From Candidatus Micrarchaeota archaeon (GTDB lineage: Archaea; Micrarchaeota; Micrarchaeia; Anstonellales; Bilamarchaeaceae): a stretch of DNA of 48,755 nucleotides. Both the position numbers and the translations under genes were made by a program. Shown piece after piece: positions 43,380 through 46,747 of the stretch. Numbering within the stretch: the stretch's first letter is position 1; every line of letters begins with the position of its first letter. A model generated the notes under the pieces. It did no database searches, was not told the origin of the DNA, and was given only the letters and a program-made list of their open reading frames with translations. The DNA lies in NCBI GenBank assembly GCA_043827025.1, contig JBDRPL010000007.1:1-48755 (forward strand). The letters run 5' to 3'.

Positions 43380-43541
43380 ACTATCACACTAAAATTTTAT
43401 ATGGCCCATTTTAAAAAATATGCTACTCGTGGCTTTTATAGCTCACACTAGATAAACTTAAATAAAAAAACTCGAATCTAAATTCTATATTTAGAAATTG
43501 CGTGATCTGATGATCACAGCTAGCCAACCTATCGTTGGCTA

Positions 43542-43568
43542 TGAGTGGAAGTAACGGCAAACTTGAAG
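43542..43568 (-). repeat. 3' arm of 23S processing stem
   Basis: gaagtaacggcaaa (43548-43561) is the exact reverse complement of 46594-46607, extendable on both sides. Confidence 0.85.
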
Positions 43569-43569
43569 G

Positions 43570-46517
43570 TAGTGAGTTATGTTTTAGCCCATTAGTAACT
43601 GCAGGCTGAAAAGCTCGCTTGCGCTAACTTCTTACACCACAGTTCTATCAAACGGATCTGCTATCCGCGGGATTTGTCTCCTAGTCTTAAGAGATGCTTC
43701 GACCTTAGATGCTTTCAGGTCTTATCAACATGGCGCGTGGCTGCCCAGCAGTGCCATATATGACAACTGGTAGACTAGAGGCGCCGGATCTCCGTTCCTC
43801 TCGTACTCAAAGATCCTTTCTCTCAGGAGACTACGCTTCCAGGAGATACTACCATACTGTCTCGCGACGTATTGAACCCAGCTCATGTGGGACTTTAATG
43901 GATGAACAACCCAACCCTTGGTCGCTCCTACACGACCAGGATGTCCCAAGCCGACAGCGATGTACCAAACCGCGGGGTCGATTTATACGTTTATACGAAC
44001 AGTCTCGAATATTAAAAAACGAAAGACTGGTCGCAAGTGTACTCTCACCCGCGACGAGCCTGTTACCTCCAGGGTAGCTTGTTTGACAGCTTGATCCCTC
44101 ATCAAAGGGGATTCAAGGTTCGTTAAGCCCGAGTTTCCTCTCTGCGTCCCACGCTTTTAGAGACACAGTCAGCCAGACATTTGTCTTTGACCCTCTACTT
44201 CCGATTTCTGACCGGAATGAGTCTGACATTGGGCGCCCTTGTTTCCTTTTCGAGGGCGTACCGCCCCAGCCAAACTATCCATCTGACGCTGTCCTTTTGC
44301 AAGTAAGCAATAACGAACTAACTAATTGGTGTTACACTTTTGCCTATTCGTAACCCGAAAGTCACGACATAACAGCTCCCAATTACGCTATGTAATCAGC
44401 TCATTATTACAACATCAGACTATAGTAAAGCTCCATGGAGTCTTCGTTTCCCTCTGGAAGTTGCCGGCATCTTCACCGGCCAGTGAGTTCACCAGGTCCT
44501 AAGTAGGGACAGTGGGAAAGTCGTTACGCCATTCATGCAAGCCGCCAATTAAGCGGCGAGGTATTACGCTACCTTAAGAGGGTCAGAGTTACCCCCGCTC
44601 TTTACCAGTCCTTCTTCCGGTTGAACCCGGGATTCAGATACTGGCAGTGAGCAGGCGTCAGCCATCATACTCGTCGTTTCCGATTTGCGATGACCTGTGT
44701 TTTTGATAAACAGTCGCTATCCCCTTGTTACTGTGACCTGAAATTTACGCAATTCCAGGCATCCCTTATTCCAAAGTTACGGGACTATCTTGCCGAGTTC
44801 CCTTACTTAGGTTGTCCTGCCACACCTTAGCCTTTACAGCTAGAGCACCTGTACTGGTTCTTGGTACGAATATAGTGAATCGTTCAGATTTCCTTTTCAT
44901 GGGCCCCTAGAATCAATAGAATTACCCTAAGGTTTCAGCCACTTCTCCTCATAATAAGACTCCATGGCTCTACTCCTTTCAGACAGCTCTCGCTGCTCCA
45001 CATATCTAAAGGCGTCAAAAATCTGCTAAAGCCTATCACTATAGGATCGGAATATTAACCGATTTCCCATTCAATCCTTTGGAATTACCTCGGATTTTAG
45101 GATCGCCTAACCCTCAGCTGACGAACATGGCTGAGGAAACCTTGCTCATTCGGTGTCTAGAATTCTCATCTAGATATTGCTGCTACTAACGTCAGGATAT
45201 TCTTATCAGATCGCTCGATCGGACGTTACCGCCCGACTTCTGTACGATCCGATTGCCTCCCTACTCAATGCGCTTTTGGCGCTGGTAAGGTATCGGAAGT
45301 TGATTTAGCCCCGTGAATCTTAAGAATCTGCACTCTTGACGGGTCCGCTATTACGCGTTGTTTAGAGGATGGCTGCTTCTAAGCCTACCTTCCCGTTGTC
45401 TTTGAGAGGAGATTCGTTTACGATTAACACTTAATCAACATTTAGGGCCCTTAACCTTACGTACGGTCGTTCCCGTAAGAGCTTACAGACTTACTCCGTA
45501 AAACTCCACTGCCTCCTTCTACGAAGATACAAGATTCTGAGTTTGAGAAGTTGGTGATCCCTTTCGGAACCGCTCCACCTAGTCAGTGCTATACCCTTGT
45601 ATCATTCTCCAGAGACGCTGTGCTGAGACACATTTCGAGAGGAACCCGCTATTACCACGTTCGATAGGACTATCACCCCTACACCCAAGTCACCTAAGCA
45701 GATATACTAGCATTAGTTGCGGGCCTCCACTGATCGTCAGATCAGCTTCACCCTGCTCAGGCGTAGTTCACTATGGCTTCAGGTCTTCTGGGAGTGACTT
45801 AACCCCAGTTAAGAGGCTGCTCCTCATTGCTTGCGAGCAATTCGCTTTCGCTTCGAATTTCATCTCGCCACGCCCAAAAACTCCCTGACACTTGCTTCGA
45901 GAAGAAAGATAGGACATCGGTAAACCCTGTCGGACTCACCCTCTCGAGTGAGAACTTCCAGGGTCTTCAAACCCTTTCACGCCCTACCATTCTGTTACCA
46001 TATAGCTTCAGGATCTTTTCACACTCATCCCTGAGTACTTTTCAACTTTCGCTCGCGCTACTATTTCGCTATCGGTCTAAGGATCATATTTAGATTTAGG
46101 TGTTGATACACCCACCTTCACATCTCCTATTCAGGAGATGCTACTCTTCTCGGATCATACCTTTTATCCTTCATCTACGAGGCTATCACTCGCTATGGCA
46201 TGGTTTTCCAACCAACTTCGATTCAGACAAAGGTTATCCCCACCACATCTACCTTACATTACTGCAAGGAATTCGGTTTGATCTGTCCGGCGTTCAGTCG
46301 CCCTTACTAACCGGATCACTTTTGTTTTCTTTTCCTCCTCCTACTAAGATGCTTCATTTCGGAGGGTTAGTGCACACCTTTATTCAAGGTGTGCTCAGTC
46401 GTATCTCGGGATCACAGACTGCGTGCGTCTACCCCGAGCATATCGCCGCTTACCGCGCGACCTTGTGTTCCTTAGCCAAGTCATCCACTATATGGCGTAA
46501 ATCAGCATAACTCACTA
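43570..46517 (-). rRNA. rrl: 23S ribosomal RNA (archaeal), stand-alone
   Basis: Sarcin-ricin loop AGUACGAGAGGAAC, P-loop GGCUGGGGCG, PTC loop; terminal helix 43570-43581 pairs with 46506-46517. Confidence 0.98.
43983..44036 (-). other. 54-nt insertion (putative archaeal intron) in 23S helix 89
   Basis: Removing it restores GAGUACAC|AUCGAC, equivalent to E. coli 2470-2483; internal hairpin; ends fit a bulge-helix-loop motif. Confidence 0.8.
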
Positions 46518-46587
46518 GATATTTGAGAATTTATAAACTTCGGTTTCTTTACTTTGGTTTACTTATTTGGTTCTCATTGTTTTTAAC

Positions 46588-46614
46588 TCCAGATTTGCCG
46601 TTACTTCACACTCA
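46588..46614 (-). repeat. 5' arm of 23S processing stem
   Basis: Complementary to 43542-43568. Confidence 0.85.
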
Positions 46615-46747
46615 AGTCAATGTTATAGACTAAACTTTTGTAAGTTTAGAAACATGACGCTTCCCCCAAACAGGAGGAGATCAATTACCCTATGCATCAA
46701 TTTATTTCATGCGTTATGATACGCAATCATTAACTAGGGTGGACTCT

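Follow-up and report, generated by a model that had tools for sequence, protein, structure and literature searches.

A probable 54-nt ORF-less intron of relaxed BHB type at the tip of 23S rRNA helix 89 in a Micrarchaeota genome, and the history of its insertion site

The 23S rRNA gene of the Micrarchaeota genome studied here is interrupted at the tip of helix 89 by a 54-nt insert which is in all probability (about 90%) an ordinary, enzyme-spliced, ORF-less archaeal BHB intron in its relaxed form. A preliminary description of the sequence had already proposed a spliced mini-intron, and this proposal is supported by the geometry of the boundaries, by family-wide conservation, by the genes for an epsilon2 EndA and an RtcB ligase in the same genome, and by RNA joints in near relatives. 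As a class, short BHB introns without an ORF are well established in rRNA (PMC4496867); what is new here is the family-level picture of the site, together with a conserved loop motif.

Position and boundaries of the insert

The features discussed below are located in Table 1 with respect to the window, i.e. the whole stretch of 48,755 nt that was analysed. The insert measures exactly 54 nt (44036 to 43983, minus strand). Once it is removed, no gap is needed near the site to align the gene with E. coli rrlH, and the flanks fall on positions 2477 and 2478, at the tip of helix 89; the boundary is identical when set by the empty alleles of relatives. No second insert is evident in the host 23S gene. 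The 16S, 5S and tRNA genes are absent from the window, the 16S gene being located on another contig.

Table 1. Location of the insert and associated features in the window (positions count from the first letter of the window).
Feature	Position	Strand	Remark
Host 23S (archaeal LSU) rRNA gene	43573..46514	minus	sole match in genome; spliced length 2888
Probable ORF-less BHB-type intron, 54 nt, relaxed hBH / bulge-helix-loop, at E. coli 23S 2477/2478	43983..44036	minus	
5' exon end: exon-stem GA, central-helix strand GUAC (44042-44039), AC ahead of the 5' cut (44037|44036)	44037..44044	minus	
Intron 3' end: central-helix strand GUAU (43988-43985) and two bulge bases ahead of the 3' cut (43983|43982)	43983..43988	minus	
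UAAAC, five unpaired bases facing the 5' cut	43989..43993	minus	motif relaxed, not strict
Intron hairpin: 5-bp and 6-7-bp stems, AU-rich loop	43994..44035	minus	compensatory changes in the hairpin family
3' exon start (E. coli 2478-2483): third bulge base and exon-stem UC	43977..43982	minus	
CGUUU motif, 5' side of the loop, conserved in the hairpin family	44017..44021	minus	function unexplained
Candidate antisense partner of the intron 5' arm and loop (E. coli 2051-2064)	44439..44452	minus	weak lead

Concerning the ends of the transcript, a long, nearly perfect stem is formed by the leader (window 46500-46660) and the trailer (43500-43590) of the pre-23S RNA, both on the minus strand, and one RNA-library contig extends into the leader. 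One duplex fold of this processing stem showed no clear BHB.

Fold and splicing motif

In the predicted fold of the precursor, the central helix formed by exon GUAC and intron GUAU has pair probabilities of 0.92-0.99, and the insert itself folds as a hairpin of -13.6 kcal/mol (z -3.0), a value reached by none of 200 shuffles. The 5' cut (AC^U) faces UAAAC and lies in a 3x5 internal loop, not in a bulge; the 3' cut falls in a 3-nt bulge provided that the GA/UC exon pair forms. As a whole, the strict hBHBh' form, with its two 3-nt bulges and helices on both sides, does not describe the insert of the window, which takes the relaxed hBH/BHL form (one 3-nt bulge and a loop, with a broad-specificity EndA in the host).

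Most of the preliminary description of the motif has held. It had placed a 54-nt ORF-less insert exactly between 2477 and 2478, a position on which the E. coli alignment and the empty alleles agree, and had noted that cutting each strand two bases beyond the helix reproduces the boundaries deduced from alignment; the empty alleles, the E. coli alignment and the RNA joint described below put them at the same places. The 4-bp pairing of exon GUAC with insert GUAU and the hairpin UGCGA-CAGUCU/AGACUG-UCGUA were both recovered, and the relaxed bulge-helix-loop geometry was borne out with the 5' side refined to the 3x5 internal loop. Only the proposed GA/UC closure of the exon side, adjoining the central helix, fared unevenly: it is present in the fold of the spliced product, whereas its probability in the precursor is only 0.25, because ViennaRNA favours a register shifted by two bases.

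A different kind of element was also considered. A group I intron was rejected, given a length of 54 nt vs. a catalytic core of at least 200 nt and the absence of any Rfam intron family up to E 10; the Rfam search of the insert returned only chance miRNA matches far below threshold, and no snoRNA family. Likewise, inspection of the alignments revealed no boxes of a C/D or H/ACA guide: the C-like 5' word pairs by Watson-Crick pairing with covariation, CUGA is not conserved, and the longest perfect antisense match of the window's insert (8 nt) is shorter than the 10 nt or more expected of a guide.

Splicing machinery of the host genome

The genome (1.33 Mb, 91.6% complete), whose 23S groups with those of Micrarchaeota, encodes, on contig C6, an EndA of 392 aa whose best match is the epsilon2 EndA of ARMAN-2, 4FZ2 (E 1e-131; next match E 8e-21). 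The residues named as key to the epsilon2 enzyme (PMC3488258), namely the catalytic Y236, H251 and K282, the recognition residue R275 and K161 of the specificity loop, are all retained at the same positions, as read from the sequence. The EndA type, left for later identification in the preliminary description, is accordingly given as epsilon2 with intact catalytic residues. The ARMAN-2 EndA cuts both strict and relaxed hBH/BHL substrates (PMC3239211). An RtcB ligase gene is also present (G000:C11:57900-59213, E 6e-167).

Near the EndA gene lies a 143-aa ORF (L001:2818-3249, minus strand; G000:C6), which resembles an IS200-type Y1 transposase. On contig C11, a 145-aa protein (L002:1456-1893, minus strand) gives a weak match to the EndA domain, under the cut-off (E 3e-4), and is devoid of the catalytic His region; next to a full epsilon2 EndA, it is possibly a leftover structural subunit. 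As for other introns in the same genome, many tRNAs are intron-split and the 16S gene carries a strict 45-nt BHB insert at E. coli 866/867 (G000:C24:22630-22586, minus strand; L003). The AAACUUUU-type hairpin of this 16S insert resembles non-family inserts found at 2477, as well as some tRNA introns of the genome.

The pathway that we propose would begin with the pairing, in the pre-23S RNA, of exon GUAC (2472-2475) with GUAU at the 3' end of the intron. A dimer of the epsilon2 EndA would then cut after C2477, in the 3x5 loop, and before A2478, in the 3-nt bulge; RtcB would ligate the exons and so restore the loop at the apex of helix 89; the intron, once excised, would probably circularise before decaying. 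Among these steps, cutting by the genome's own EndA, ligation in this particular strain and circularisation of the intron are those that we infer.

Occupancy and motif conservation in relatives

The site was surveyed in other genomes, as the preliminary description had suggested. The region was matched in 50 out of 61 genomes, and two pattern searches over 176 genomes of the order provided 89 scorable ones, i.e. genomes with both flanks on one contig. The site, a hot spot for insertion, is filled in 41 of these, with inserts of 43 to 320 nt, and empty in the other 48. Wider scans of genome and metagenome collections for inserts of 36-66 nt gave 23 loci in species genomes and 41 in metagenome contigs; three of them (L070, L085 and L090; one species-genome and two metagenome loci) were chance matches outside rRNA and were dropped. 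The 22 real species-genome loci are all labelled Micrarchaeota, save one 'ainarchaeum' (L074), whose 23S and intron nevertheless fall inside the Micrarchaeota clade and which is likely to have been mislabelled or mis-binned.

Pooling provided 63 distinct inserts, that of the window included, in 33 clusters at 80% similarity. Kept outside this set were L040 (Ns at the site), L045 (without the site) and L017, L044 and L048 (insert 5 nt upstream). Since the 63 inserts are related, the counts that follow represent non-independent events. The 4-bp pairing with the exon occurs at offset -6..-3 in 62 of the 63 inserts, vs. 44 of 4398 at other offsets (a background of ~1%, calculated from an initial set of 62 inserts, one row of which was mis-cut), and is therefore not due to chance. 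The letters at this offset are GTAC (42), GTAT (19), GTGC (1) and ATAT (1). The last two bases of the insert, which form the bulge, take eight different dinucleotides and match exon AC in a single case (1/63). In an alignment of 37 sequences, the central helix is paired in 100% of cases and varies only by G-U wobble, and the intron stem covaries (C-G 26, U-A 6). A strict BHB is found in 46 of the 63 inserts and a relaxed one in 17, among which that of the window.

These figures bear on the possibility that the mature rRNA retains the insert as an expansion segment, the terminal GUAY being only a decayed 6-nt duplication. GUAC is palindromic, and pairing with the exon and duplication of the exon consequently look alike, being written in the same letters. 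Yet a neutral duplication would be expected to decay evenly, which is at odds with helix positions that vary by wobble only next to a bulge pair that hardly ever matches AC; the contrast between constrained helix and free bulge bases shows selection for the splicing motif. Moreover, inserts of 43-320 nt with unrelated sequences sit at the tip of helix 89, which contacts L39 in a universally conserved manner (PMC6326782). Taken with the RNA contigs presented below, this makes retention very improbable.

As an intron, the insert is of an ordinary kind, and the worth of the case lies in the data set. Filled in 41/89 genomes, the site combines precise losses with cases in which hairpins of unrelated sequence have taken over, includes one pair of inserts in tandem and has yielded no allele with a homing endonuclease. 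This makes it tractable for asking how archaeal introns without an ORF come into being, are maintained and disappear.

Joined exons in RNA of near relatives

Part of this 23S is contained in 20 public RNA-type runs, four of which (X1, X2, X3 and X10) were aligned. In all four, which come from near relatives, a contig joins 43982 to 44037 with 54 nt skipped and with the position of the joint unambiguous. The joined contig of X2 shows no difference over 44037-44142 (106 nt), a segment in which 7 differences separate the window from the closest of the 117 other locus rows, and hence originates from a close lineage. The long contigs of X1 and X2 are ~98% identical to the window and are not of the same strain; the joint contig of X3 has 8 differences in 267 and that of X10 has 28. 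Based on bin depths, the insert is uncovered in X2, X3 and X10, X1 being not resolvable by depth, and no contig carrying the insert is present among the RNA contigs listed.

The joined RNA has the same sequence as the empty allele that the 48 genomes carry; sister species lose the intron, and contigs can drop the rarer allele. Retention as an expansion segment could account for the joints if they stemmed from empty alleles, but it has to face the lack of any insert-bearing contig among those listed. The joints, read from RNA of near relatives alone, support splicing but fall short of proving it.

A second alternative is that the insert is cut out and the exons stay unjoined, giving a fragmented 23S like that produced by bacterial intervening sequences. 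Such fragmentation would be invisible in contigs, which cannot show RNA ends. It is nonetheless hardly credible in a genome that encodes RtcB, the ligase by which the ends left by EndA-type cuts are joined (PMC4496867), and joined contigs exist from a lineage closer to the genome than any other locus compared. Regarding the excised RNA, no back-joint of a circular intron was seen among the joints listed, contigs being a poor test for an RNA of 54 nt.

A hairpin family with probable losses and replacements

Homology links 45 of the 63 inserts, including that of the window: all are hairpins of 43-58 nt whose stems show compensatory changes. A profile of this family has the insert of the window as its sole match in the genome and finds 62 matches in the relatives' locus set, all at 2477/2478, with one further match on the opposite strand of a member. 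A sequence-only model run on 151 genomes of the class gave three matches, again all at 2477/2478, although this model is weak and missed known inserts. A dispersed cassette was rejected, the family profile matching no other site in the genome or in the locus set.

A tree of the 23S exons was built from 55 rows, duplicates and rows with fewer than 1500 aligned columns being excluded, and with a sampling that favours filled alleles. All 20 hairpin-family rows fall within one clade of 38 rows (SH-aLRT 86), and the tree needs at least 8 changes between filled and empty and 17 changes among four states. The identities of the inserts correlate with those of their hosts (231 non-independent pairs, Spearman 0.48), and the nearest relative, of the same genus, has an unrelated 94-nt hairpin at the site. 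Given the single clade, the correlation between insert and host identities and this unrelated hairpin, we infer that the family is old and mostly vertically inherited, with several precise losses and several replacements by unrelated hairpins. In one pair (L062/L073), the hosts are 89% and the inserts 96% identical, a similarity that may reflect transfer.

The preliminary description had suggested that the insert might be what is left of a homing-endonuclease intron, i.e. the decayed remnant of one encoding a LAGLIDADG protein. ORF-less or remnant introns do share loci with endonuclease introns in the 16S of Thermoproteales (PMC4496867), and the patchy distribution at 2477/2478 fits gain and loss. 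The suggestion nevertheless found no support: the longest of the 41 filled alleles in the order, to which the search for long alleles was confined (the wider collection scans covering inserts of 36-66 nt), is 320 nt, too short to encode a homing endonuclease; the hairpin family is uniformly 43-58 nt long and spans one clade; and LAGLIDADG_3 (PF14528), the one Pfam family searched, has no match in the 91.6% complete genome. A remnant origin is accordingly considered improbable. The site itself may be predisposed to the acquisition of introns because GUAC is palindromic: a hairpin bringing a short duplication of the exon end would constitute a ready-made BHB, which offers a simple reason for repeated colonisation.

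The conserved loop motif

Within the family, CGTT is kept on the 5' side of the loop in 35 of the 45 members, the remainder of the loop being AU-rich and variable in length. An additional role was considered for this motif, one that adds to the BHB-intron explanation and does not replace it. The intron would be spliced and would also have an antisense function, in which its 5' arm, together with the loop (consensus in the family ~AGUCUUCGUUUC), pairs with positions 2051-2064 of the 23S. This stretch is the 5' strand of helix 73 and of the peptidyl-transferase loop. The conserved loop of an old, domesticated mini-intron family could then keep the 5' strand of the peptidyl-transferase centre in an open state up to the moment of splicing, as a cis-acting rRNA folding chaperone or assembly checkpoint comparable to box A of yeast snR190, but with no need of C/D boxes. 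If the loop motif were functional in this way, a spliced rRNA intron would take part in ribosome assembly.

Several observations speak for this idea. CGTT persists despite host 23S identities down to ~75-85%, and 2051-2064 ranks first of ~200 sites in 23S and 16S when 17 cluster representatives are pooled. Several members without CGUUU carry a perfect GUCUUCG instead, sometimes displaced from the stem, and two structurally different inserts (L011 and L041) keep a similar word. Chaperone pairing of a snoRNA within H73 has, in addition, been shown in yeast (PMC8536666); that site presumably corresponds to the same helix in E. coli numbering. However, 3 of 49 dinucleotide-shuffled targets hold an equal or better site, and the antisense strand scores nearly the same (-13.9 vs. 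-14.1), its z being better. Only 7 of the 45 members have their longest perfect Watson-Crick match at 2051-2064, vs. 11 at a helix-66 site and 27 elsewhere; for the insert of the window, the longest perfect antisense match is 8 nt and 2051-2064 ranks 12th. The intron's own stem takes up half of the element, the target sequence hardly varies, many close relatives are without the intron, and the idea was formed after the data had been seen. The antisense pairing is therefore a weak lead and the chaperone role built on it improbable, and the analogy with snR190 serves the antisense reading only: snR190, antisense to the helix-73 region, likewise folds rather than modifies rRNA, but it acts in trans and belongs to the box C/D RNAs, with an antisense box that is long and perfect, whereas the insert has no C/D boxes and a mostly interrupted complementarity (PMC8536666).

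Comparison with known introns

The closest parallels to a BHB intron of this kind are the hairpin-forming (HP) introns in the 16S of Thermoproteales (Jay and Inskeep 2015, PMC4496867), which are also ORF-less, ~50 nt long, located in a conserved rRNA loop and built as a hairpin that keeps the BHB core; they are excised by EndA and joined by RtcB. The present insert differs by its location in 23S helix 89, its Micrarchaeota host, the epsilon2 enzyme and the relaxed motif. The HP class is also described as being under ~50 nt (PMC4496867), vs. 54 nt here, and no neighbouring homing endonuclease was found in the genome. As regards enzyme type, key residues and substrate class, the insert is comparable to the relaxed tRNA introns of Ca. 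Micrarchaeum acidiphilum ARMAN-2 (Fujishima 2011, PMC3239211; Hirata 2012, PMC3488258), with the difference that the substrates are tRNA introns in ARMAN-2 and the host RNA is here 23S rRNA.

In LSU genes of uncultured archaea, those of Micrarchaeota among them, BHB introns have been drawn alongside group I introns (Nawrocki 2018, PMC6125680). In the portion of that work consulted, positions are listed for group I introns only (1923, 1931, 2500 and 2593), 2477/2478 may be shown in its Figure 1, and the part of its supplement that was searched contains no match to BHB, 2477 or 2478. More generally, no paper on an intron at 23S 2477/2478 was found in a literature coverage that is incomplete, and older intron papers may list the site. 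Among these, Kjems and Garrett are said to have described, in 1991, two ORF-less 23S introns of ~54-56 nt with a BHB core in Staphylothermus marinus; this host is crenarchaeal, and the likeness noted here is one of size and type.

Neighbouring inserts

In one relative (L035, G010), the insert at 2477/2478 is 106 nt long and consists of two tandem introns: the first, a hairpin resembling the family, ends in GUAC-AU and the second, also a hairpin, in GUAU-AA, an arrangement that may require ordered splicing. The three loci with an insert five bases upstream (L017, L044 and L048; 43, 178 and 246 nt, respectively) have it at ~2472/2473, all ending in CUCAAA, and represent a second site in the same loop, in two other families. 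More inserts occur near E. coli 2449, 2490 and 2500 (L027, L047, L036, L041, L029, L034 and L037), and several relatives' genomes are split into 3-7 pieces across 600 nt of domain V.
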